Counted from the stretch's first letter, positions 19,856 to 60,006 are shown. The stretch: DNA of 64,000 nt from an uncultured Candidatus Saccharibacteria bacterium (GCA_964505155.1 CAZDGL010000004.1:4110-68109); one strand, 5' to 3'. Translations and numbers: made by a program. The notes: generated from the sequence alone by a model not told the origin.

Positions 19856-20113
19856 TTGACTTTTTATATAAAGCCTGACACAATAAATCCAAACTTAAAA
19901 CCCATTTTTATGTTAACTACCAAAACCATTATTTTGGCTGCCACAGTTACAGCCAAAGGCTTCAATGCGCACCTCACAGAAAAAAGGCTTGTCGAGATCA
20001 AAACCACAGAAATGATTTTCAACAATGGAAAGACCATTCCGCAAAGTCCTGAAGGTGTTAATCTGAGAAAGCCTAACCGTAACCAGGTACTGTACGGGAA
20101 ACAGACCAGGTAA
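19856..20113 (+). CDS. hypothetical small protein
   Basis: ORF with an alternative start at 19910. Has its own terminator. Confidence 0.35.
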   Translation: MTFYIKPDTINPNLKPIFMLTTKTIILAATVTAKGFNAHLTEKRLVEIKTTEMIFNNGKTIPQSPEGVNLRKPNRNQVLYGKQTR

Positions 20114-20120
20114 AACATTT

Positions 20121-20166
20121 TTGCAGGTATGTCACAGCTTTGTGTCATACCTGTTTTGTTTTTTGG
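20121..20166 (+). terminator. rho-independent terminator
   Basis: 12-bp stem caggtatgtcac / gtgtcatacctg with one mismatch, followed by a T-run. Confidence 0.75.
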
Positions 20167-20235
20167 ATTTTTTCTCTTGATTTGAGAATGCTAAGTGATT
20201 GTAAAAAGTTTGTAGTTATGGCAGTATAGATACAT

Positions 20236-20487
20236 ATGACACACGAACAATCATTCCAAAACGAACATTCACCAGCTTTTGAAGAAGCTCTAGCTGCTAT
20301 CTCAGCTGTTAACGCAGAACTTATCAGTTTCCAAGCTAGCGAGCAGGCTTTTGGTGAACTTGGCGCCCTCAAAGATCGTCTAGAAGCAGGCGAGTCAGCA
20401 CAAATCATAATGAAAGAGGCAGAAGACCTTCGCGATCTGGCACAGCAAGCCCACGAGTCCAAAGACAGTCTAGATATAGCTGCGTAA
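20236..20487 (+). CDS. hypothetical small acidic protein (locally GC-rich ORF)
   Basis: 83-aa ORF with clearly higher GC than its neighbours. Followed by a terminator. Confidence 0.45.
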   Translation: MTHEQSFQNEHSPAFEEALAAISAVNAELISFQASEQAFGELGALKDRLEAGESAQIIMKEAEDLRDLAQQAHESKDSLDIAA

Positions 20488-20495
20488 AATAAAAC

Positions 20496-20524
20496 AACGC
20501 CGGATAATCCGGCGTTTTTGTTTG
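20496..20524 (+). terminator. rho-independent terminator
   Basis: cgccgga-taa-tccggcg followed by tttttgtttg. Confidence 0.75.
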
Positions 20525-20547
20525 TAAAAACCCTCAAAATGTGGGAT
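20521..20547 (+). promoter_or_regulatory. 27-bp promoter/operator motif, copy 1 (tttgtaaaaaccctcaaaatgtgggat)
   Basis: Exact 27-mer repeated at 20983-21009. It contains TTGTAA-17-GATTAT and an imperfect palindrome CCCTCA-AAA-TGTGGG. Confidence 0.5.
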
Positions 20548-20556
20548 TATCTTTTT

Positions 20557-20958
20557 ATGGAACAAGACCCATCAAAACCAAAGATTGAAGTAACAGAAAT
20601 ACAAGAAGAGATGAAAAGTGCTGATAAAACAATCTCTGATATAGAGAAACAATTAAATTCTCTGATGGACGATCTAGAACACAATGCCAATCTCTTGGAA
20701 ACAAAGATATTATTTGCTGAAATTGAGGATTCAAATAAAGATTTTCAAGATGTTGGGGCTAGCTATTCACCAGAAAAAGCTGAAGAATTGAAACAAGATA
20801 TTATTAAGTCTTTGGCTACTATACATATTTTGCAAGAACAAATAATGAAATTACATAGTGACAGGGAAGATGTGGAAAATATCAAATTACGCCTCCAAAC
20901 TCTACAAGAAGACTACAAAAAACAGCTAGTTAGTATATCCGAAGGACAGCAAAATTAG
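20557..20958 (+). CDS. hypothetical coiled-coil protein, apparently leaderless
   Basis: The Met at 20557 lies about 8 nt after the putative -10. The track start at 20518 is inside the promoter motif. Confidence 0.45.
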   Translation: MEQDPSKPKIEVTEIQEEMKSADKTISDIEKQLNSLMDDLEHNANLLETKILFAEIEDSNKDFQDVGASYSPEKAEELKQDIIKSLATIHILQEQIMKLHSDREDVENIKLRLQTLQEDYKKQLVSISEGQQN

Positions 20959-20982
20959 AGCCCAAAACCATCTTTAAAATAG

Positions 20983-21009
20983 TTTGTAAAAACCCTCAAA
21001 ATGTGGGAT
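20983..21009 (+). promoter_or_regulatory. 27-bp promoter/operator motif, copy 2
   Basis: Identical to 20521-20547 and placed directly upstream of the MazG-like gene. Confidence 0.5.
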
Positions 21010-21020
21010 AGTTGTGTTGT

Positions 21021-21368
21021 ATGAAGGACTCAGAGAGGTTTGAATCTCTTGTAGCTCGAATAAAAAAATTTTCTGATGACCGAGATTGGTCTCAATTTCA
21101 TGATCCTAAAAATCTTGCTATTTCTCTAAATCTTGAAGCAACTGAAGTTCTAGAGCTTTATCAGTGGACAAAAGATAATCAACTTAAACCGGAACGGGCT
21201 GGGAAAATAAATGAAGAGCTTGCCGATGTGTTTTATTGGCTCATCCTCCTTTCAAATTATTACAGTATTGATATTGTTGAAGCTCTTGATAAAAAAATGG
21301 ATCAAAATGAAGAAAAATATCCAGTAGAAAAAGCAAAAGGAAAATCAGATAAATATAATGAACTCTAA
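21021..21368 (+). CDS. MazG-like nucleoside triphosphate pyrophosphohydrolase
   Basis: RDWSQFHDPKNLAISLNLEATEVLELYQW...EELADVFYWLILLSNYYSIDIVEALDKKMDQNEEKYP is a typical all-alpha MazG/dCTPase-like NTP-PPase. Confidence 0.7.
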   Translation: MKDSERFESLVARIKKFSDDRDWSQFHDPKNLAISLNLEATEVLELYQWTKDNQLKPERAGKINEELADVFYWLILLSNYYSIDIVEALDKKMDQNEEKYPVEKAKGKSDKYNEL

Positions 21369-23390
21369 ATGTCTGACATAAAAACATTTCCATTTAAAAA
21401 AGACTCTTTTGACCAAATAAAGAAATATAAATTTGGTAAAAATTGGCCAGTTGTTTATGTTCTTGAAGATAAGAAGGAGATTTATATTGGTCAAACAGTC
21501 AATGTGCATGCTAGAAGTAAACAGCACTATGAAAACCCAGAACGAGCAAAACTAAAACAAATTCATATTATTACAGATGAAGAGTTTAATATTTCAGCTG
21601 CTTTTGACATTGAAGCATGGTTAATACAGTATATTTCAGCTGATGAAAAATTTGTTTTACAAAATAGTAATGGTGGTTTAAAAAATCATAACTATTACGA
21701 CAAAGCAAAATACAAAGCAAAATTTGAAATTGCTTGGGATAACTTGCGACAAATGGGTATTGTAAAAAACACCTTAGAAGACCTTAAAAATAGTGACTTA
21801 TTTAAGTATTCTCCTTATAAGTCTTTAACAGAAGACCAATTCACAATATCTAGGCAAATCTTCAAAGATATAAAGAGAAATGAAGTTAATACTTTTATAG
21901 TAAATGGTAAACCAGGTACAGGAAAGACAATCTTAGCCACATATCTTTTTAAGTACTTGAAAGAGCAAGACGAAACAAAAAATATGAATATTGGCCTTGT
22001 TGTACCAATGGCGTCACTTCGAAAAACAATAGCTAGAGTCTTTTCAAAAATAAAAGGCTTAAAATCAAACATGGTTATTGGGCCAAATGATGTTGTAAAA
22101 GACACATATGATTTGCTGATAGTTGATGAATCCCATAGATTGCAAAGACGAAAGGGTATTATGGGTTATGGTGCATATGACAATGTAAATCGTGGGCTTG
22201 GCTTAGGTAATGAAGGCACACAACTTGATTGGATTATGAAGTCATCTAAGCACCAAATATTTTTCTATGATGAAAATCAAAGTGTAAAACCTGCCGACAT
22301 TAGGCCTGAGGATTTTAAAAAACTTAATTCTAAAAAATACGAATTAGTTTCGCAAATGCGCGTTGAGGCTGGTGAAGAATATATTAAATTCATCGAAGAT
22401 TTTTTTGATTTAAAAACTCTAAAAAATACAAATTTTTCAAATTATGATTTTAAAATATTTGATAATGCTAAAAAAATGGTAAACGAAATTAAAGAAAAAG
22501 ATAAAAAGCACAAACTTGCTCGTGTGGTTGCTGGATATGCTTGGCCTTGGCATACAGCACATGGTACCCGTGACTATGATATAGAAATAGGCGATTTAAA
22601 ACTTGTTTGGAACTCTACAGCCCAAGATTGGGTAAATTCGCCAAATGCTATAAATGAAGTTGGTTGTATTCACACTGTGCAGGGTTATGATTTGAATTAT
22701 GTTGGTGTAATTATTGGTCCCGAATTTTCATATGATATAGAAAATAGAAAATTCAAAGTTGATAAGGAAAAATATTTTGACACAAATGGCCGTAATGGTA
22801 TTACTGATCCAAATGAATTAGAAAGATACATAATAAACATTTATAAAACACTACTCACTCGAGGGATAAAAGGCACTTATGTTTATGTTGTCGATGAAAA
22901 TTTAAGAAATTATTTAAACCAAGTTGTAAATAAAACCCTGATCTCAGTTCAAAAAGAAAACACACCAAAAAGTATAAACTCGCCATATATTGGCGAAATG
23001 ATAGGTATTCCACTCGTTGGATCAGCACCATGTGGAGAGCCACTTTTGGGAGAAAGTAATATTGAGGAAATAATACAAGTCGAAAAAAATAAAATTAAAC
23101 CCGGGACAAAATATTTTATTGTTAGAGCTAGTGGAGATTCCATGAATAAAGCCGGGATAGATGACGGTGACCTTGTTCTTTGTCGGTATGCTGAAAAAGG
23201 GGAAACTGGTGACAGAGTTGTTGCACTGCTTGGTGGTGAAAATGTAACAATAAAATATTATGACAAAAAAGATGGGCGTAGAATTTTGTTACCTAAAAGT
23301 ACTAATCCTAATCACCAACCAATCACTCCAGAAGAAGGAGACGTGGTTCAAGGTATTGTCCAAGAGGTAATAAAAATATCAGAAAATTAA
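21369..23390 (+). CDS. fusion of a GIY-YIG nuclease, a DUF2075 P-loop ATPase/helicase-like domain and a LexA/UmuD-like S24 self-cleaving peptidase domain
   Basis: GIY-YIG motifs VVYVLEDKKEIYIGQT..R..QH..E. Walker A NGKPGTGKT and Walker B LLIVDESHRL. The C-terminus IPLVGSAPCGEPLL...VRASGDSMNKAGIDDGDLVL...DRVVALLGGENVTIKYY aligns to the LexA C-domain with the Ser and Lys dyad conserved and a Cys-Gly scissile site as in UmuD. The ATG is directly coupled to the MazG stop (TAAATG). Confidence 0.75.
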   Translation: MSDIKTFPFKKDSFDQIKKYKFGKNWPVVYVLEDKKEIYIGQTVNVHARSKQHYENPERAKLKQIHIITDEEFNISAAFDIEAWLIQYISADEKFVLQNSNGGLKNHNYYDKAKYKAKFEIAWDNLRQMGIVKNTLEDLKNSDLFKYSPYKSLTEDQFTISRQIFKDIKRNEVNTFIVNGKPGTGKTILATYLFKYLKEQDETKNMNIGLVVPMASLRKTIARVFSKIKGLKSNMVIGPNDVVKDTYDLLIVDESHRLQRRKGIMGYGAYDNVNRGLGLGNEGTQLDWIMKSSKHQIFFYDENQSVKPADIRPEDFKKLNSKKYELVSQMRVEAGEEYIKFIEDFFDLKTLKNTNFSNYDFKIFDNAKKMVNEIKEKDKKHKLARVVAGYAWPWHTAHGTRDYDIEIGDLKLVWNSTAQDWVNSPNAINEVGCIHTVQGYDLNYVGVIIGPEFSYDIENRKFKVDKEKYFDTNGRNGITDPNELERYIINIYKTLLTRGIKGTYVYVVDENLRNYLNQVVNKTLISVQKENTPKSINSPYIGEMIGIPLVGSAPCGEPLLGESNIEEIIQVEKNKIKPGTKYFIVRASGDSMNKAGIDDGDLVLCRYAEKGETGDRVVALLGGENVTIKYYDKKDGRRILLPKSTNPNHQPITPEEGDVVQGIVQEVIKISEN

Positions 23391-23402
23391 TTTATTAAAC
23401 AA

Positions 23403-23431
23403 AAAAGAACTTTACAGTTCTCTTTCCACTT
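23403..23431. terminator. bidirectional terminator
   Basis: agaact-ttac-agttct with T-runs on both strands. Confidence 0.55.
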
Positions 23432-23599
23432 TTATTTTTCTTTACGAACTCCTTTGAAAGGTTTGCCGTCTTCTTTTACGTCCATAAAACGACCGCCCGG
23501 TCCTCGTTTGACCCATTCGTCTGTTTTAGGATTAAAAACTTGCGTTCTGTCTTTTACTGCTCCTATGCGTCCGGAGCCCTTAGGGGGATTTTTTGCCAT
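23432..23599 (-). CDS. small basic protein, 56 aa (unannotated ORF)
   Basis: Own translation: MAKNPPKGSGRIGAVKDRTQVFNPKTDEWVKRGPGGRFMDVKEDGKPFKGVRKEK. Below the length cut-off of the ORF track. Has its own terminator. Confidence 0.35.
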   Translation of the reverse strand: MAKNPPKGSGRIGAVKDRTQVFNPKTDEWVKRGPGGRFMDVKEDGKPFKGVRKEK

Positions 23600-23728
23600 A
23601 GTTTTTAATAAATTATTTTATCGCTTCGACTAAGTCGATACTCTGAGTGTATTCCTGAAAATAAGTAGTGTCAAATTATCCACACACTAGATGTTGCATT
23701 ATTAGAACACTCGTTTTATAATAGAGGC

Positions 23729-24415
23729 ATGATTAATGATTATGTCAAATTTATCAAGACCCTTCGAGAAAAGAAGGGTATTTCACAGCTTCAGATCGCA
23801 AAACAGCTAGGCATTTCTCGTGCTTCGTATATTGCTATAGAGCAAGGGAAGCGAGAAATAACACTAGGGGAGCTAGAAAGGCTAGCAGAAATTCTCGGTG
23901 TTTCTATTCAAGACATCAAGCATGGCGAGATTCCAAAATATACAAAATACAAGCAGATGATCCATGCTTTTTTGCGGTTAAATACTAGCTTGCCAAAAAC
24001 AAAGCTCGCAAAGCTACTCTATTTCGCTGACTTTGCTTGGTATTACAAACACCTCGAGAGTATGAGTGGTATGCAGTATCGCAAAATTCAGTATGGACCA
24101 GTGGCTGATACGTATTTTCGTTTGATTGATGAAATGTTTGACGGCGGAGAGATCGTCATAGAAAAGAAGTCTACCCAAACAGGAAATGAAGCAATGCTTA
24201 TCTCAGAGACTCGTGCAGGAGCAAAGGGGGGCTTGTCAGATTTATCAAAAAGTGAGCTTTCTTTGATTCAAGATATAAACAAAAAATGGAAAGATAAGCC
24301 GACTAAAGATATTGTAAGTTTTACTCACAAGCAAATGCCTTATATCTTTGCAGAAGACAATGATATTGTCTCGTATGAGGTATTTGGTCAAGAAAATCCA
24401 GAAGATATTTATTAA
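23729..24415 (+). CDS. protein with an XRE-family HTH and a Panacea/DUF4065 (SocA-like) antitoxin domain
   Basis: N-terminal HTH ISQLQIAKQLGISRASYIAIEQG. C-terminal KLAKLLYFADFAWYYKHLESMSGMQYRKIQYGPV matches the Panacea domain signature. Confidence 0.65.
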   Translation: MINDYVKFIKTLREKKGISQLQIAKQLGISRASYIAIEQGKREITLGELERLAEILGVSIQDIKHGEIPKYTKYKQMIHAFLRLNTSLPKTKLAKLLYFADFAWYYKHLESMSGMQYRKIQYGPVADTYFRLIDEMFDGGEIVIEKKSTQTGNEAMLISETRAGAKGGLSDLSKSELSLIQDINKKWKDKPTKDIVSFTHKQMPYIFAEDNDIVSYEVFGQENPEDIY

Positions 24416-24418
24416 ACT

Positions 24419-24814
24419 ATGAAGTACTCGGTTATATTTGAGCCGTTTACAGATCGGCATTATATAAAAGGATTTGAAAAGAAATATAAAAATGCTTGGG
24501 ACAAGACCCTCAAGTCATTGTACATAGAGTTTACTTTTGCAGAGTTACTTTTTGAAAAGAGCATTGCTGAGACAATATCTAGATCAAGTGATAATACTGT
24601 AAGGATTTGTAAGACTGAATTTAAAATATTGGGGACTGAAAAATCTCGTCATTCTTCAGGAAATAGATGCATTATTGCCATAGATCAAAATATTGGGGTA
24701 GTACGGGTGCTTCTTGTTTATGCAAAAACAGATGTATCTACCTCAGGGAATGAAACCGAGTGGTGGAAAAAAGTTGTAAAGGAAAATTATCCAGAGTATA
24801 AAGAAATCTTATAA
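24419..24814 (+). CDS. putative RelE/ParE-superfamily toxin-like protein
   Basis: YSVIFEPFTDRHYIKGFEKKY...LKSL and ...RCIIAIDQNIGVVRVLLVYAKTD resemble the RelE/ParE fold motifs. Lies 4 nt downstream of the Panacea gene. Confidence 0.45.
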   Translation: MKYSVIFEPFTDRHYIKGFEKKYKNAWDKTLKSLYIEFTFAELLFEKSIAETISRSSDNTVRICKTEFKILGTEKSRHSSGNRCIIAIDQNIGVVRVLLVYAKTDVSTSGNETEWWKKVVKENYPEYKEIL

Positions 24815-45789: not shown

Positions 45790-46509
45790 TTATTTGGTGA
45801 GATATTTCTGCAAAGTAAAAATCCAGTCTTCTTCACCTATAGGGTTTTTGAGTTTTTCAGAAAGTAGCCATGAGAGGTATCCAGGGTCTATTTTGGCGAC
45901 TTCTTCGACACGCATGCCTTTGTGCTTGCCAAAAGAGAACTCTCGCATAAAAGCCGGCTCTTTGGTTACGTTCATCATTTCTTCGAGGGCTTCGTCTTCA
46001 TTTTTACCAGTAGATTTTATTTTCTCAAGTAAGTATTCAAATAGTTTTTCTAGGACTATCACATCTGCCATAGCATCATGCGCGCCGACGTCGAGCTCCA
46101 TATCGAGAGCATAGCGGAGGTATTGGAGTTTGTAGTTGGTAAATTGTGTTTCAACATCTATGTGACGCACTGTTTTGTAAGTACAGATGACGTTGGTCGG
46201 ATGGATACCTTCAGCAGTAAGCATAGTGACATCAAAGGCGCTATTGTGAGCCACAACTATAGTCTCAGGATTTTCAAATAGAGCTTTTATTTCCAAATAC
46301 TTCGGATGCTCTTGAAAAGCGGGCTTGTTGGCAACCATATGATTGGATATATGATGAACGGCACTAGACTCAAAAGGGATAGGGAAAGGAGGTTTGAAAA
46401 GTTCGTTGATAAGGGGAGTAGGGTTGCCACGCTCTTTTATAGCAAGCTGAACTATGCGGTCATCGTGAGTGTTGCCGGTGGTTTCTGTGTCGAAAAATAG
46501 TATTCTCAT
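45790..46509 (-). CDS. DEDDh 3'-5' exonuclease (DnaQ/ExoX-like) with a C-terminal KHKG...YLSWL (DUF3820-like) module
   Basis: Exo motifs FFDTETTG, HNSAFD and HDAMAD. C-terminal FGKHKGMRVEEVAKIDPGYLSWLL. Confidence 0.8.
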   Translation of the reverse strand: MRILFFDTETTGNTHDDRIVQLAIKERGNPTPLINELFKPPFPIPFESSAVHHISNHMVANKPAFQEHPKYLEIKALFENPETIVVAHNSAFDVTMLTAEGIHPTNVICTYKTVRHIDVETQFTNYKLQYLRYALDMELDVGAHDAMADVIVLEKLFEYLLEKIKSTGKNEDEALEEMMNVTKEPAFMREFSFGKHKGMRVEEVAKIDPGYLSWLLSEKLKNPIGEEDWIFTLQKYLTK

Positions 46510-46617
46510 AACTACAAGTATAGCATTTACTTAGAGGTTGGCATTTATAGATATTGACATTTAGCAAAGTAAGATGTATTTTATAAAAAATCTTTCACAA
46601 TAAAAAAGGAGGTAAAA

Positions 46618-48462
46618 ATGAAATATTTACTAGTTCCATTACTGATAATTAGCTTGATAAAAGTTGATTTTTCAGTCATCCCCGCGTGGGAGCCATGGAG
46701 TATGCAACGGGTAGAATACGATCCGCAGAAAAACGTATTTGTTGATTACAACAAGGTATGGGATAACTGGATGTTTTCCTTAAATCTTGAAGAACGGAAG
46801 AAGCTCATGGAGCCGACCGAAATCCCTGCTAAGAAAAAGACGAAGTTCTGCTTCAGGCAGGATTTATTTACCGATGACAAACGTTATCTCACTGCCAGTG
46901 CATTTGCTACTGGATTTGCAAAGAAAGATCAACGTCGTCGCTTTGTGCTGATTAACGTTGAGGAAACAATTCTCGACAAAACAAAAGAAGGTGACCGTCA
47001 GTATCGTGCATGGCCACATCTTGGAATTCTTTTTGTCGGTACTGCCGCACATGAAGAAGAATGGGATGTAGTACTCTGGGACGAATTAGTACAGGGTCAT
47101 GTTGACCTTGAAAAACTTGTTCAACCTGGAGACGTTGTTGGCTTCAGTTTGGTTGTTACAGGTATTGAGCGTGGTGTAGGGCTGGCTCGCAAAGCAAAAA
47201 CACTTGGAGCTCAATATGTAATTACTGGGAACGATTCTGCGATTTTTCGTGTGAATCAACTTCTCGCATTACCTGGTAAACCAATTGATGCTGTATTTAC
47301 AACAAACAGTGTTATGGCGGTTCGGTCATTCTTTCGGCAAATTAGTAATGTGCCTATCGAATCAATTCGTATTCCTGGATTCGAAACAAACGCAGGAGTA
47401 TATCAACGTTCAAATGAACGAGACTGGCTGATAGCTGAAATGTCAGAACGTAAGAAAGGATTTGATGCAGATGATGTGTTTATCGTGCCAAAGCTCGATC
47501 TGTATCCGCAATCCTATTGGGATGAGGTATGGGGTAATTATCGCAATCAATTTGGGCATAAACATCCAAATCCTGAGACGGTAAAGAACGCATTGGCACT
47601 ATTTGCTCAAGGGTGCACACGTACCCAGGGACATGATGTTTGTAGCTACTGCACCATTGCAGGAGTCGCAGATATCCGTATCCCGTCCCGTGAGTACATC
47701 GTAAAAACCGCCGAGTTGTACAAAAACTTCGGCATTGACATGGTGTTTAATGTAACCGATTCGGTGTTTGAAATGACACCAGTGGTGCATGCATTGCGGG
47801 AAGAGAACATTCACTTCAATGCAATGACCATTTACGGTCGTGCTCAAGGCCTTACAAAAATGCCCCAACAAATTGAAAAATGGTTGTCTGTTGTAAAAGA
47901 CAGATTACTCATTAATGTTGGAATGGATTCGGGAGATGACAATTCGCTTAAACAAGGGGTTGTGAAGTCTTCTATCACACAAGGTTCACGAGTTAGTGAA
48001 AACAGAACTGCCGTTGAGAATATTAAGAAAACGGGAGCACACCTTCATTACTCGCTAATCTTCGGTTCACCTGGAGAATCCAAAGAATCATGTGACAGGA
48101 GCATTGAGTTCCTGGAGTGGACGATTCAAACGTTAGGTAGTCAGCTTGATATCTGCGAAACGGACATCTTCTGGTTGAACTTTGGCTCACCAGCAGGAAG
48201 AATATTTCATGATTATCCGCACGCAGTGTACCTCTCAAGTTTAGCTGGGAAGTTCATTACCCCTGAAGAGTGGAAGAAACATTTTGTCGCTTTCAAAGAC
48301 AACCTATTTGTTCCATTGGAAGTTGAACAATCCTGGTATCAGTATTTTACAAATATAGATCTTGATACTGCTCAGGAGTACAACAAGAAGTGTACTGAAC
48401 TTATGGCAAAGCACACAGGCAGTATCCGTGGTAGAGCATTCAAGCCTTCTTTAGATAGTTAG
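46618..48462 (+). CDS. B12-binding-domain radical SAM protein with non-canonical Cx8CxxC spacing, function unknown
   Basis: Cobalamin-binding-like segment HLGILFVGTAAHEEEWDVVLWDEL...VVGFSLVVTG. Cys cluster CTRTQGHDVCSYC. Radical-SAM barrel motifs VGMDSGDDNSLKQ and LIFGSPGESKES. Preceded by a canonical AAGGAGG ribosome-binding site. Confidence 0.55.
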   Translation: MKYLLVPLLIISLIKVDFSVIPAWEPWSMQRVEYDPQKNVFVDYNKVWDNWMFSLNLEERKKLMEPTEIPAKKKTKFCFRQDLFTDDKRYLTASAFATGFAKKDQRRRFVLINVEETILDKTKEGDRQYRAWPHLGILFVGTAAHEEEWDVVLWDELVQGHVDLEKLVQPGDVVGFSLVVTGIERGVGLARKAKTLGAQYVITGNDSAIFRVNQLLALPGKPIDAVFTTNSVMAVRSFFRQISNVPIESIRIPGFETNAGVYQRSNERDWLIAEMSERKKGFDADDVFIVPKLDLYPQSYWDEVWGNYRNQFGHKHPNPETVKNALALFAQGCTRTQGHDVCSYCTIAGVADIRIPSREYIVKTAELYKNFGIDMVFNVTDSVFEMTPVVHALREENIHFNAMTIYGRAQGLTKMPQQIEKWLSVVKDRLLINVGMDSGDDNSLKQGVVKSSITQGSRVSENRTAVENIKKTGAHLHYSLIFGSPGESKESCDRSIEFLEWTIQTLGSQLDICETDIFWLNFGSPAGRIFHDYPHAVYLSSLAGKFITPEEWKKHFVAFKDNLFVPLEVEQSWYQYFTNIDLDTAQEYNKKCTELMAKHTGSIRGRAFKPSLDS

Positions 48463-48476
48463 TACATTGTGTATTT

Positions 48477-48508
48477 TAAAAGCCCTTCAATTGAAGGGCT
48501 TTTTATTG
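48477..48508 (+). terminator. rho-independent terminator
   Basis: Perfect palindrome agcccttcaa / ttgaagggct followed by a T-run. Confidence 0.8.
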
Positions 48509-57044: not shown

Positions 57045-57917
57045 ATGAAAAATAAAATCGGCACTTATACAACTAGAGAGCTCGCTATCAAAGCCAATGA
57101 AATCCGTGAGAGCATCATAGAAATGCTTTTGGAAGCTGGTTCAGGGCATACTGCGGGACCTCTCGGAATGGCAGATGTTTTCACTGCACTTTATTTTGAT
57201 TTGCTTCGCCATGATCCAGAGCGTCCAGATTGGGCAGAGCGCGATAGACTAGTGCTTTCAAATGGACATATCAACCCTGTGCTTTACGCTACTATGGCGC
57301 ACGTCGGTTATTTTCCTATAGAAGAACTCAAAACTCTTCGCAAATTTGGAACACGACTTCAAGGGCACCCTCATCGAGAGTTTTTGCCATATCTTGAAAA
57401 CTCTTCTGGACCTCTCGGTTCGGGTCTTTCGCAGGCAGTCGGTATGGCGCTTGCAGATAGGATAGATAATGGAGTCACAACACAGAAATACTTTTATTGT
57501 TTACTTGGAGACGGAGAGCTCAATGAAGGCAACAACTGGGAAGCTGTCATGCTCGCTGGCAAAGAAAAACTGCGCAACCTCATAGCGATAGTAGATAGAA
57601 ACAACATTCAGATAGACGGTTATACTGAAGATGTGATGCCACTAGACTCTCTGACTTCCAAATGGGAAGCGTTCAACTGGCATGTACAAGAAATAGACGG
57701 TCACAATATTGAAGCTATAATCGATGCGGTTCACAAAGCCAAAGCCGTGTTTGAAAAGCCTTCTGTCATCATCGCCCGCACTATTCCTGGCAAAGGCGTT
57801 CGAGAGTTTGAACGTAAGTTTGAATGGCACGGCAAGGCTCCAAACAAAGAAGAAGCAAATATGGCGCTTCAGGAACTGAGAACATTGGGAGGTAAAATTA
57901 AGAGTGAGCATAACTAA
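57045..57917 (+). CDS. transketolase, N-terminal (TPP-binding) subunit
   Basis: GSGHTAGPLGMADVF...GDGELNEGNNWEA. Ends LGGKIKSEHN. Confidence 0.85.
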   Translation: MKNKIGTYTTRELAIKANEIRESIIEMLLEAGSGHTAGPLGMADVFTALYFDLLRHDPERPDWAERDRLVLSNGHINPVLYATMAHVGYFPIEELKTLRKFGTRLQGHPHREFLPYLENSSGPLGSGLSQAVGMALADRIDNGVTTQKYFYCLLGDGELNEGNNWEAVMLAGKEKLRNLIAIVDRNNIQIDGYTEDVMPLDSLTSKWEAFNWHVQEIDGHNIEAIIDAVHKAKAVFEKPSVIIARTIPGKGVREFERKFEWHGKAPNKEEANMALQELRTLGGKIKSEHN

Positions 57918-57919
57918 AC

Positions 57920-58117
57920 ATGACTAAAATAATATTTGCTTTTATAATTGGGCTACTTCTCATATTTTTTGGTTATCGTACATATAGCATGTCTTATACT
58001 AGTAAATTTTTTACGTCTTTTACTAAAAAATTTCTTAGCGTAGTAATGTTTTTTGTAGGGTTATTAATTCTTGTGGTGATTTACTATGGATATAAATTAT
58101 TAAGCGGATTTGCATAA
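57920..58117 (+). CDS. tiny 2-TM membrane protein (65 aa), AT-rich islet gene 1
   Basis: Hydrophobic ORF about 25-30 percent GC, placed 2 nt after the tkt N-subunit stop. Confidence 0.4.
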   Translation: MTKIIFAFIIGLLLIFFGYRTYSMSYTSKFFTSFTKKFLSVVMFFVGLLILVVIYYGYKLLSGFA

Positions 58118-58122
58118 TTAGT

Positions 58123-58392
58123 ATGAAAAATATAGATTGGGCAAAAACAATAGGTAGATTAGTAATAGTAGTGTTTGGACTAGCCACCATCTTTTTTGGC
58201 GTAGGAATCTATGCCTTTGGTGTTACTTTTGGGAGTGTAAGTAATTTAAAAATTTTTCTTACTCTAGTCCCACTATTCTTATCTGGCTGTGTAATGATCT
58301 TTTTAAATAATATCTCTAAAGGAAAGAATTGGATTTGGGTAACAATAAGTTTTTTTGTTTTATTAGCATATTTTATTATGTTTAATAATTAA
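58123..58392 (+). CDS. tiny 3-TM membrane protein (89 aa), islet gene 2
   Basis: Hydrophobic ORF tightly packed after gene 1. Confidence 0.4.
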   Translation: MKNIDWAKTIGRLVIVVFGLATIFFGVGIYAFGVTFGSVSNLKIFLTLVPLFLSGCVMIFLNNISKGKNWIWVTISFFVLLAYFIMFNN

Positions 58393-58395
58393 TAT

Positions 58396-58686
58396 ATGAG
58401 AAATAGACCTAGCATTTTCTTCTTAACTGTCACAGCTATTAGTCTTTTTGTATATATTAAATATTTATCAGCCTCTTTTTCTTTTCCTGCTCGTGCAGTT
58501 GGATTTTTAGGATTTTTTGGCTTACCCGCATCCTTTTTTTGGTTGGGAATAAGTTTATTTATACAAGGTAAGAAGATGCAAAACCGTAAAAATCAGTCTA
58601 TTGGGGTAGGACTAATTGTTATTGGGCTAATCACTTCAATGATTGTAGTCGGATGGACAATTCTTGCTTTTAGTGATTGGCAGTAA
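58396..58686 (+). CDS. tiny 3-TM membrane protein (96 aa), islet gene 3
   Basis: Hydrophobic ORF. Confidence 0.4.
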   Translation: MRNRPSIFFLTVTAISLFVYIKYLSASFSFPARAVGFLGFFGLPASFFWLGISLFIQGKKMQNRKNQSIGVGLIVIGLITSMIVVGWTILAFSDWQ

Positions 58687-58693
58687 TAAATAT

Positions 58694-58789
58694 ATGTTAA
58701 ATCCTAATTTAAAACTAAATAACAAAATTTTCTCAGACGATTGCGAATTAATAGTATTAGGAGGTAAAATTAAGAGTGAACATAATTAG
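58694..58789 (+). repeat. duplicated transketolase junction: copy of the tktC 5' end (54 bp) fused in frame to a copy of the tktN 3' end (about 33 bp)
   Basis: 58694-58747 matches 59014-59067 with 2 synonymous mismatches. 58757-58789 matches 57885-57917 with 3 synonymous mismatches. The fusion reads as a 31-codon chimeric ORF MLNPNLKLNNKIFSDDCE-LIV-LGGKIKSEHN. Confidence 0.7.
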
Positions 58790-58790
58790 T

Positions 58791-59021
58791 ATGAAATATT
58801 TAAAGATATCTTTACAAATAGTTCTTGGGTTAGCAATTGTTATTTTTTCTGTAAAAGAAAGCGCTTATACAATGAAAGCTTTTTCTCTTATTTGGGGTAC
58901 TCAACATACTGGGTTTTTTATTATATATCTAGTCCTCATTCCTATTTATTGGATAATCGGTTTATTTCTTATTAATCTTGGTATGAGAAATTTATCTAAA
59001 ATAAAAAAACAAAATGCTTAA
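58791..59021 (+). CDS. tiny membrane protein (76 aa), islet gene 4
   Basis: Hydrophobic ORF. Its stop overlaps the tkt C-subunit ATG. Confidence 0.4.
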   Translation: MKYLKISLQIVLGLAIVIFSVKESAYTMKAFSLIWGTQHTGFFIIYLVLIPIYWIIGLFLINLGMRNLSKIKKQNA

Positions 59022-60006
59022 TCCTAATTTAAAACTAAATAACAAAATTTTCTCAGACGACTGCGAACAAGCACCGATCCGCAAAGGCTTTGGTGAGGGC
59101 TTGGTGGAAGCGGGGGAAAGTAATAAAGACATCGTTGCTCTTTCGGCAGATCTGACAGAAAGTACGCAAATGCATTTATTCAAAAATCGTTTTCCAGAGA
59201 GGTTTGTCGAGATCGGTGTAGCAGAACAAAATCTTGCAACAGTTGCGAGCGGTATGAGTGCTATGGGTAAGTATCCATTTTTCTCTTCCTATGCGATGTT
59301 CTCTCCAGGTCGCAACTGGGAGCAAATCCGCACCACTCTTGCATACAACGATAGAAAGGCAGTTATCGTGGGCTCTCATGCTGGTGTATCTGTAGGACCA
59401 GATGGCGGTACACACCAAGCCATAGAAGACATCGCTCTTATGAGGGTTATCCCGCGCATGATGGTACTTTCACCTTGCGATAGCCTACAAGCCAAGAAAA
59501 TGACCCTAGCACTTGCGCAGGCTCCAGAGCTGGCATATCTACGACTCGCTAGAGAAAAGACGCCTATCATCACCAGTTATGATACCCCTCTTGAACTCGG
59601 AAAGGGGCAAGTTCTCTACAGACCAGAAGGTGTGGCACATGTGGCTATCATTGCTACTGGTGCATTGGTAGCCAATGCTCTTCGCGTTGCCAAAGACTTG
59701 GAAAAGAAACATATCAAGGTAGTGGTAGTAAATATTCACACCATTAAACCACTAGATGAAGAGCTCATCATCAAAGTTGCCAAAGAAACAAAAGCAGTCG
59801 TAACTGTAGAGGAACATCAAGTAGTGGGTGGACTTGGAGGAGCAGTAGCTGAATGTTTGGCAAAAAGTTGTCCAACACCGATAGAGTTTGTAGGAGTTCA
59901 AGACCTCTTTGGTCAGTCTGGTACACCACGTGAACTCATTGAGCATTATGGAATGGGACGAGATGGGATTGAGAAGGCGATTTTAAAAGTTATAGATAGA
60001 AAGTAG
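59014..60006 (+). CDS. transketolase, C-terminal (pyrimidine-binding) subunit
   Basis: IGVAEQNLATVASGMSAMGKYPFFSSYAMF. Confidence 0.85.
   Translation: MLNPNLKLNNKIFSDDCEQAPIRKGFGEGLVEAGESNKDIVALSADLTESTQMHLFKNRFPERFVEIGVAEQNLATVASGMSAMGKYPFFSSYAMFSPGRNWEQIRTTLAYNDRKAVIVGSHAGVSVGPDGGTHQAIEDIALMRVIPRMMVLSPCDSLQAKKMTLALAQAPELAYLRLAREKTPIITSYDTPLELGKGQVLYRPEGVAHVAIIATGALVANALRVAKDLEKKHIKVVVVNIHTIKPLDEELIIKVAKETKAVVTVEEHQVVGGLGGAVAECLAKSCPTPIEFVGVQDLFGQSGTPRELIEHYGMGRDGIEKAILKVIDRK

Follow-up and report, generated by a model that had tools for sequence, protein, structure and literature searches.

A conserved Shine-Dalgarno sequence before a divergent radical-SAM gene: probably a native accessory gene of a Patescibacteria-restricted family

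Why does a single gene carry a textbook ribosome-binding site where almost none of its neighbours does? The question is raised by 64,000 nucleotides of DNA assigned to an uncultured Candidatus Saccharibacteria bacterium (GCA_964505155.1 CAZDGL010000004.1:4110-68109; the whole stretch is called the window here, and positions are counted from its first letter), in which a gene for a radical S-adenosylmethionine (SAM) protein occupies positions 46618-48508 of the + strand. An earlier note on this DNA read the gene's Shine-Dalgarno (SD) motif, together with an apparently different codon choice, as signs of a possible horizontal acquisition. Our analysis points elsewhere. On balance, the gene is probably native to its host, a Patescibacterium of the Paceibacteria/Parcubacteria type, in which it would be an accessory gene, and encodes a divergent radical-SAM enzyme with a B12-binding-like domain; its SD appears to have been conserved in the gene family for a long time and to be no foreign signature.

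The open reading frame (ORF; 46618..48462, +) encodes 614 amino acids plus a stop from an ATG start, and its product belongs to a radical-SAM family restricted to Patescibacteria. Homologues back the start codon, as their alignments begin at residue 1 and both P22 and the motif PxWxLWGNP are kept before the next in-frame Met. The sequence AAAAAGGAGGTAAAAATG is located at 46603-46620, with the AGGAGG core of the SD at 46607-46612 and a spacing of 5 nt to the ATG. Upstream lies a predicted sigma-70-type promoter (46554..46582, +; TTGACA, 17-nt spacer, TATTTT) with 10 of 12 consensus matches, followed by an A-rich, unstructured 5' leader of ~35 nt (46583..46617, +; minimum free energy -4.3 kcal/mol, z +1.07). 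Transcription is predicted to start near 46590. The end of the feature at 48508 includes an intrinsic terminator (48478..48507, +), whose hairpin at 48478-48503 has an 11-bp stem with the GC core GCCCUUC/GAAGGGC and an AAUU loop and precedes a U-tract. Its fold (-17.6 kcal/mol, z -4.83) was equalled in 0 of 200 shuffles; a simple motif scan had missed the hairpin, which came from folding with shuffles. Because it combines a promoter, an unstructured SD-bearing leader and a terminator, the gene appears to form its own transcription unit, self-contained, monocistronic and leadered.

The leader itself showed neither a riboswitch nor another RNA element when these were sought, and an Rfam search of it returned no family at E<=1. 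Its first part, AAAATCTTTCACAAT, is found again in the relative L006 and as a close variant in L008. The motif AAAATCTTTCA(C/T)AAT (window 46590-46604), just 3' of the -10 box, is common to the window, L006 and L008 (three of six sequences), despite the L006 and L008 proteins being only 75-78% identical to the window protein, and may be a start-site or operator element. On the other side of the promoter lies a divergent gene (45790..46509) for an ExoX-like exonuclease. Its extended -10 promoter (TG-TATACT; 46517-46544, - strand) ends 7 nt before its ATG, a leaderless geometry unlike that of its leadered radical-SAM neighbour.

How exceptional the SD is can be judged from the 79 ORFs called in the window, for which duplex energies were computed against the 16S anti-SD. 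The SD of the radical-SAM gene, at -13.1 kcal/mol, is the strongest of all 79. A level of -6 kcal/mol is attained by just six of the 79, as often as at random positions (7.2%); -10 kcal/mol is reached by 0.65% of random positions. A second AGGAGG before a start, at 58759, belongs to a duplication of the 3' end of the transketolase-N gene, where it encodes LGGK, and is badly spaced (11 nt to a GTG, 26 nt to an ATG); it was therefore not counted as a ribosome-binding site. The AGGAGG of the radical-SAM gene is hence the only convincing SD among the window ORFs. TATAAT boxes (at least 5 of 6 matches) end 5-12 nt before the start in 26 of the 79 ORFs, against 3.2 +/- 1.8 at random positions, and leaderless initiation therefore appears to be common in this genome. 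The earlier note was thus right that this is the only canonical SD of the window and that essentially all other genes are SD-less or leaderless.

The transketolase locus deserves a word of its own. The gene is split into an N part (57045..57917) and a C part (59014..60006) with ~1.1 kb between them, where four small hydrophobic ORFs (65, 89, 96 and about 80 amino acids) are located. At 58685-58788 stands a chimeric remnant in which a C-part 5' end (a copy 89% identical to 59005-59067) is joined to an N-part 3' end (a copy 82% identical to 57873-57916). It looks like a duplication or insertion scar (57873-59067), and explains the second AGGAGG before a start codon.

Beyond the window, the SD recurs with the gene. 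With the best candidate start in the first 30 codons taken for every gene alike, an SD of -8 kcal/mol or stronger precedes 23 of 40 orthologues, as compared with 30 of 363 neighbouring genes (8%). The median energies are -8.35 and -3.1 kcal/mol, respectively (Mann-Whitney p = 1e-9, a value that is indicative only, because the sequences are phylogenetically related). The spacing in the orthologues is canonical (4-8 nt). In the five closest of them, TTGACn -35 and -10-like boxes can be read by eye at a comparable distance 5' of the ATG, with leaders of similar or somewhat greater length, and this layout is kept even in the two that lost the SD. Since orthologues mostly carry the same kind of SD and their neighbours do not, the SD argues for a native gene.

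Base composition is in line with this. The GC content of the gene (0.423, z +0.84) and its GC3 (0.381, z +0.6) fall within the normal range of the window, and by codon log-likelihood it ranks 8th of 70 for atypical use. The CGN share of its Arg codons is indeed raised (0.81, window 0.54), and a run of CGT CGT CGC stands at 46933-46941 (R106-R108); the same bias is found in the genes for RmuC (1.0), Obg (0.80) and a class II aminoacyl-tRNA synthetase (0.88). It is other parts of the window, at about 4-8 kb and 20-24 kb, that stand out in composition. The supposed difference in codon choice is therefore not borne out.

The relatives of the protein point to Patescibacteria. A first homologue search returned 226 proteins, of which the best 120 are 47-89% identical at a query coverage of at least 73% and mostly 600-637 amino acids long; names among these 120 are absent, 'hypothetical', or a generic YgiQ label. 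Close homologues overall span 41-89% identity, and wherever a taxon is given among those listed, it is Patescibacteria (Parcubacteria, Microgenomates, Berkelbacteria or Buchananbacteria). A scan of GTDB, one genome per species, found the family in 38 of 185,579 species, a lower bound because the scan rests on two conserved peptides. Nearly all of the 38 loci are from Patescibacteria, labelled Paceibacteria, Parcubacteria, Zambryskiibacteria, Microgenomates, Uhrbacteria, Kerfeldbacteria, Buchananbacteria, Doudnabacteria and Moranbacteria; the automatic labels 'Saccharibacteria', 'Gammaproteobacteria' and 'Kapaibacterium' on some loci were not trusted. This is clearly a rare, patchy accessory gene with no phylum-wide housekeeping role. 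An exhaustive profile search gave a tight family, then a gap, and then proteins of ~500 amino acids at 19-24% identity. By neighbour joining, the Patescibacteria family comes out as monophyletic, with a long stem leading to it, and the window gene falls within a Paceibacteria/Parcubacteria subclade. No account of the family turned up in the literature searches.

What kind of protein does the gene encode? The earlier note had described a 614-residue protein with a B12-binding-like Rossmann domain, radical-SAM barrel motifs and a CX8CX2C cysteine cluster, and structure prediction, Foldseek and family-level Pfam searches agree with it. Searched alone, the window protein matches only Radical_SAM in Pfam, at 23.7 bits (gathering score 29.5; E = 6e-5), and gives no match to PF02310 (B12-binding). 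At the family level (E<=0.01), PF04055 is found in 32 of 35 members (best 1.3e-8) and PF02310 in 20 of 35, so that the proposed domain check succeeds for the family and falls short for the single sequence. NCBIfam gives faint B12-radical-SAM matches (12.7-25.3 bits against cut-offs of 251-650). A PDB sequence search yielded no meaningful match, neither with the single protein nor with a 104-sequence profile. An AlphaFold2 (AF2) model built on 104 homologues reached a predicted local distance difference test score (pLDDT) of 91.6 and was matched by Foldseek with probability 1.0, at ~10-16% identity, to AprD4 (E 8e-15), TsrM (1e-14), QCMT/MgmA (5e-14), TokK (2e-10), CysS (3e-9) and MiaB/RimO (4e-9 to 1e-7). 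For TsrM, TokK, CysS and QCMT, the match extends over the Rossmann domain and the barrel alike. The model thus supports assigning the protein to the B12-binding-domain radical-SAM superfamily, as a divergent member.

More specific identities were considered and set aside. The named equivalogs HpnJ, HpnR, ladderane rSAM, PhpK, MJ_1487 and MgmA/MJ_0865 all score far under their NCBIfam cut-offs, although the N-terminal region of HpnR weakly matches residues 135-260; BchE gives no match to the window protein at E<=1, and is the first or second strongest match, far under cut-off, for ten of ten outgroup proteins. The YgiQ/UPF0313 label, which is a generic COG name used at JGI, was rejected, as the YgiQ-specific N- and C-terminal domains are not found and PF04055 and PF02310 alone recur among the 35 members scanned. 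An enzyme maturing ribosomally synthesized and post-translationally modified peptides was likewise discounted: the gene has no adjacent precursor gene, no conserved neighbour over 33 loci and no N-terminal domain of known fold. No small ORF for a precursor peptide adjoins it, the upstream gap being 108 nt and the downstream gap consisting of the terminator only. An anti-phage defence protein, such as the prokaryotic viperins, was dropped since no PADLOC family matched at E<=0.001.

The protein divides into several parts, all on the + strand. Residues 2-13 (46621..46656), MK followed by YLLVPLLIISLI, form a hydrophobic helix resembling a signal anchor, which AF2 models as a helix at residues 2-12. 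In the 104 long forms, K or R occurs within residues 2-7 in 101, and 93 have 11 or more uncharged residues in a row; a lipobox is absent from all 104, and a Tat-like motif is present in one sequence. Residues 14-87 (46657..46878) make up a small, family-specific alpha/beta domain in which P22 and W51 are conserved and P70 is invariant. It is joined to the rest by a linker, residues 88-107 (46879..46938; pLDDT 47-55, mean column conservation 0.28), that ends in the basic cluster KKDQRRR. The N-terminal ~105 residues are family-specific and are absent from its short forms (~500-545 aa) and from the outgroup. Modelled alone, residues 1-106 reach a pLDDT of 82.6, and comparison of the ~75-residue domain with PDB structures gave no fold match (best E = 2.4). 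The short forms of ~505-545 amino acids, lacking the N-terminal helix and domain, are L030, L032, L038, L027 and L044. Three fragments that match the N-terminal domain only (P0263, P0210, P0230) were considered as new fusions and discarded, as they look like truncated or frameshifted copies.

The catalytic scaffold follows. Residues 108-260 (46939..47397) form a Rossmann-type, B12-binding-like domain with the motifs GNDSAIFR and PIDAVFTSNS, and its mean column conservation of 0.71 is the highest in the protein, compared with 0.69 for the barrel. Residues 326-510 (47593..48147) form the partial triosephosphate isomerase (TIM) barrel of radical-SAM proteins, with the conserved motifs NVGMDSGD and SLIFGSPGE, invariant in their GMDSGD and FGSPGE parts, and with PF04055 extending over residues 330-499. 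Within it, C333-x8-C342-x2-C345 (47614..47652), invariant in 104 sequences, are the predicted ligands of the SAM-binding [4Fe-4S] cluster, and the aromatic Y344 directly precedes the last of them. This CX8CX2C replaces the canonical CX3CX2C of solved class B members. All solved B12-radical-SAM enzymes have CXXXCXXC (PMC12931638), and non-canonical CXnCX2C spacings, CX8CX2C included, have been catalogued for uncharacterised radical-SAM clusters at RadicalSAM.org (PMC9477430). The fourth invariant cysteine of the family is C492; no other is conserved among the 104 homologues, and therefore no auxiliary cluster is expected. Residues 511-614 (48148..48459) form a helical C-terminal domain with the conserved tail GSIRGRAF, where R606 is invariant. 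In all, 50 positions are invariant in the family, over many candidate classes.

From family and fold, a tentative mechanism can be drawn. The three cysteines would hold a [4Fe-4S] cluster, which would reductively cleave SAM to give a 5'-deoxyadenosyl radical; this would remove a hydrogen from the substrate, itself bound between barrel and Rossmann domain, and the latter would hold a cofactor or the substrate. We consider it an even call whether the Rossmann domain binds a scavenged cobamide, which would make the protein a class-B-type enzyme, most often a C-methyltransferase. The hydrophobic N-terminus might tether the enzyme at the membrane, an idea that we regard as somewhat short of even. 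With such a tether, the substrate might be a lipid, an envelope component or a membrane protein, and this step, which suggests a membrane-proximal substrate, is the least secure of the whole proposal.

The strongest alternative concerns the cofactor. The enzyme could be independent of cobalamin and catalyse an AprD4-like radical reaction, its Rossmann domain binding a substrate or partner as in AprD4 and ArsL and its chemistry being a radical rearrangement, elimination or cross-link, not a methylation; we hold this to be a serious, if less probable, option. B12-radical-SAM proteins commonly have GGxH at a position where our family has (A/T)GNDS and the outgroup GNDH. No cobalamin gene was found among the roughly 40 annotated ORFs of the window, and no cobalamin riboswitch either; the earlier note had likewise remarked that a cobalamin pathway is not seen here, in a stretch of 64 kb that is too short to settle cobalamin use. 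To our knowledge, Patescibacteria lack cofactor biosynthesis, and yet cobamides can be scavenged. AprD4 is the top structural match, but the cobalamin enzymes TsrM, QCMT, TokK and CysS match almost as well, PF02310 is found in the 20 members mentioned above, and the high conservation of the Rossmann domain would suit a cofactor site just as well. The B12-radical-SAM sequence network also contains AprD4 and ArsL, which bear a Rossmann domain yet bind no cobalamin (PMC12931638). Of the earlier description as a B12-dependent radical-SAM enzyme, the radical-SAM fold with a B12-binding-like domain therefore stands, and 'B12-dependent' was premature.

A second alternative concerns the history of the gene, which could be an accessory cassette moving between Patescibacteria lineages, with promoter, SD and terminator kept for expression in any recipient and the patchiness reflecting repeated gain. 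The family is indeed scattered over many candidate classes, and flanking genes differ at every locus. When five genes on either side were clustered over 33 loci, generic ATP-binding cassette (ABC) ATPases occurred at eight, TrmB and DnaK at four each, and DnaJ and ParB at three each, so that no neighbour family other than the generic ABC ATPases is found in more than four of the 33; four further long contigs showed nothing recurrent near the gene. A tblastx synteny comparison of the window with its closest relatives found only the gene itself in common. The similarity between L005 (89% identity) and the window is confined to 46582-48499: it starts at the last base of the predicted -10 box and ends shortly after the stop codon. 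A serine recombinase is found near the gene in L005. Doudnabacteria and Uhrbacteria sequences each take two places in the gene tree, one metagenome-assembled genome (MAG) holds two copies, and the rank orders of relatedness by radical-SAM protein and by DnaK disagree.

Against such mobility speak the comparisons within the same genome pairs. In the four genomes with DnaK in the flanks, the radical-SAM proteins are 48-57% identical and the DnaK proteins 60-76%, and in three of those four DnaJ is 51-54% identical. An identity below that of DnaK and on par with that of DnaJ fits old descent under constraint, not recent spread. The gene shows no compositional anomaly, viral contigs included no carrier, its neighbours are mostly housekeeping genes, and ancient duplication with differential loss would give the same pattern. 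We therefore rate a mobile cassette as rather unlikely. Because the distribution is patchy and the tree only partly congruent, an older transfer or an ancient paralogy with loss inside Patescibacteria may nevertheless belong to the history of a gene that we take to be native to the phylum. The two copies in the Paceibacteria genome MAG_MBR_H10.111 (L011, L040), which lie on different contigs and in different subclades, point to old paralogy or transfer within the phylum.

The flanking genes also include regulators. TrmB-family regulators flank the gene in the four loci counted above, mostly beside short forms, and a MarR regulator does so at another locus. The short forms L030, L032 and L038 are arranged head-to-head with a TrmB-family regulator, and in the long form L007 a TrmB gene lies just downstream.

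A third alternative touches the SD itself. If the host had no usable anti-SD, AGGAGG would not be a ribosome-binding site; the purine-rich box could instead be a regulator site, or a switch for a subset of ribosomes. In favour of this are the background level of SD use in the window and the TrmB or MarR regulators at several loci. The anti-SD motif was detected in just 48% of Parcubacteria 16S genes, and a subgroup reportedly lacks it (PMC9297842); in SD-blind Bacteroidia, the single strong-SD gene, rpsU, uses its SD as a regulatory device for autoregulation (PMC13000453, PMC9976891). A search for the 16S 3' end in all retrieved loci found none present. A canonical SD sequence with 4-8 nt spacing in many lineages, in a leader without structure or Rfam element, is nonetheless what a ribosome-binding site would look like, and we judge the alternative unlikely. 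Taken as an SD, the sequence would give the mRNA SD-dependent initiation in a genome otherwise leaderless or SD-less, and would mean privileged or conditional translation comparable to that of rpsU in SD-blind Bacteroidia. We speculate, as a decidedly long shot, that such conditional SD-dependent translation, in Patescibacteria whose ribosomes otherwise disregard SD pairing or are incapable of it, serves a lineage-specific, membrane-tethered enzyme with a new N-terminal domain that uses scavenged cobamide on a host-derived lipid, envelope or even ribosomal component.

Recent acquisition from an SD-using donor lineage, with the SD and the codon choice as leftovers, is highly improbable: the gene does hold the window's only strong SD, a raised CGN share, its own promoter and terminator as a self-contained unit, and flanks not common to its closest relatives, but its composition is normal with the same CGN bias in native genes, its nearest relatives outside Patescibacteria are only ~20% identical, its SD is common to orthologues over many Patescibacteria lineages and absent from neighbouring genes, it nests with Paceibacteria/Parcubacteria, and no viral contig carries it. 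Acquisition from outside the phylum, or any recent acquisition, is not supported.

A different part of the window makes a more plausible candidate for acquisition. The region 20000-24500 has the lowest GC of the window (0.31-0.35) and encodes a 673-residue fusion of a Schlafen-type helicase and an S24 peptidase (21369..23390), which matches the PADLOC Nhi and AbiO models, as well as a protein with a helix-turn-helix motif that resembles the SocA/Panacea antitoxin (23729..24415). An acquired defence or toxin-antitoxin islet is more plausible here than an acquired radical-SAM gene.

Several points weigh against our reading of a native gene for a B12-binding-type radical-SAM enzyme. The window sequence itself stays under the Pfam Radical_SAM threshold and has no PF02310 match, and profile searches give no solved relative by sequence; cluster, SAM cleavage, cobalamin and substrate are predictions only. 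The family is rare and patchy, with ~200 clusters at 90% identity and the 38 GTDB species, and the gene tree is only partly congruent with the taxon labels and with DnaK. The AGGAGG is a putative and unproven SD, some Parcubacteria reportedly being without an anti-SD (PMC9297842). Finally, the positive-inside rule puts the enzyme behind an N-terminal anchor of this kind outside the cell; an Fe-S/SAM enzyme is implausible there, and the helix may thus serve another purpose.

Patescibacteria represent a large share of bacterial diversity, and a role is known for few of the enzymes specific to their lineages. Unusual here are the CX8CX2C cluster loop, the new N-terminal domain without a fold match and the signal-anchor-like helix, all on a known catalytic scaffold. 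Among the many uncharacterised radical-SAM subfamilies, this one is made a good experimental target by its phylum restriction and its conserved SD in SD-poor genomes, well defined for radical-SAM enzymology and suited to probing how far reduced symbionts depend on scavenged cobamides. A textbook SD in many relatives among SD-poor neighbours offers a natural handle on translation initiation in Patescibacteria, and for annotation, the lesson is that a lone SD is no evidence of foreign origin. Should the improbable combination of an SD switch and cobamide use turn out to be true, a rare enzyme would be tied to a specialised translation switch, and cobamide scavenging would extend to ultra-reduced bacteria.

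The family can finally be set against known systems. With the class I B12-dependent radical-SAM enzymes (TsrM, TokK, CysS, QCMT/MgmA, OxsB) it shares the order of a Rossmann domain, a partial TIM barrel and a helical C-terminal domain, Foldseek matches of probability 1.0 (E 1e-14 to 3e-9), PF02310 and PF04055 at the family level, and GxESG-like and GxPGE barrel motifs. It differs from them by an identity of ~13-16%, by CX8CX2C in place of the canonical CX3CX2C, by its additional N-terminal extension of ~105 residues with a hydrophobic helix and a fold without known match, and by being confined to Patescibacteria with only putative cobalamin binding. AprD4, a radical-SAM 1,2-diol dehydratase (PDB 6FD2), is the best structural match (E = 8.3e-15, TM-score 0.67 on target) and likewise joins a Rossmann-like N-terminal domain to a radical-SAM barrel; identity is 14% and the cysteine spacing differs. 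AprD4 works within an aminoglycoside biosynthetic cluster, whereas no biosynthetic cluster surrounds the window gene. The likeness to the MiaB/RimO methylthiotransferases, with a flavodoxin-like N-terminal domain and then a radical-SAM barrel, exists at the level of fold only. The family lacks their N-terminal three-cysteine auxiliary cluster, having no conserved cysteine before residue 333, and the window protein gives no TRAM or UPF0004 match in Pfam and no MiaB/RimO match in NCBIfam at E<=1.

The nearest relatives outside the family are 'B12-binding domain-containing radical SAM proteins' of ~500 amino acids (P0142, P0152, P0278, P0292, P0296; 19-24% identity over 110-608), which occur sporadically in Streptomyces, Tenacibaculum, Salegentibacter and Thermoleophilaceae. 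Common to both groups are a CX6-8CX2C loop, GND(H/S)A, VNxGLDSGD, GxPGET and a C-terminal FTH motif, and the outgroup (F/Y)(F/Y)E(V/A)xDS corresponds to FNVTDS in the window protein. Unlike the family, the outgroup has no N-terminal helix and domain, passes both Pfam domains, and is separated by a long branch. Among these distant ~500-residue relatives, L045, L046 and L047 carry a CX6CX2C motif, and a LysE-family exporter gene adjoins in Streptomyces and Tenacibaculum; a LysE gene also lies ~3 kb from the Patescibacteria member in L048. The Tenacibaculum and Salegentibacter genes stand among integrase, conjugation and restriction-type genes, that is, genes of mobile or defence type. These contexts were rejected as a functional clue, the proteins being too distant (~20% identity) for a transfer of function.

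For the SD, the closest counterpart is rpsU in Flavobacteriia. The product there is bS21 and here an enzyme, and autoregulation is described for rpsU; what the two cases share is that a single gene retains a strong, conserved SD although the genomes around it make hardly any use of such sequences (PMC13000453, PMC9976891).

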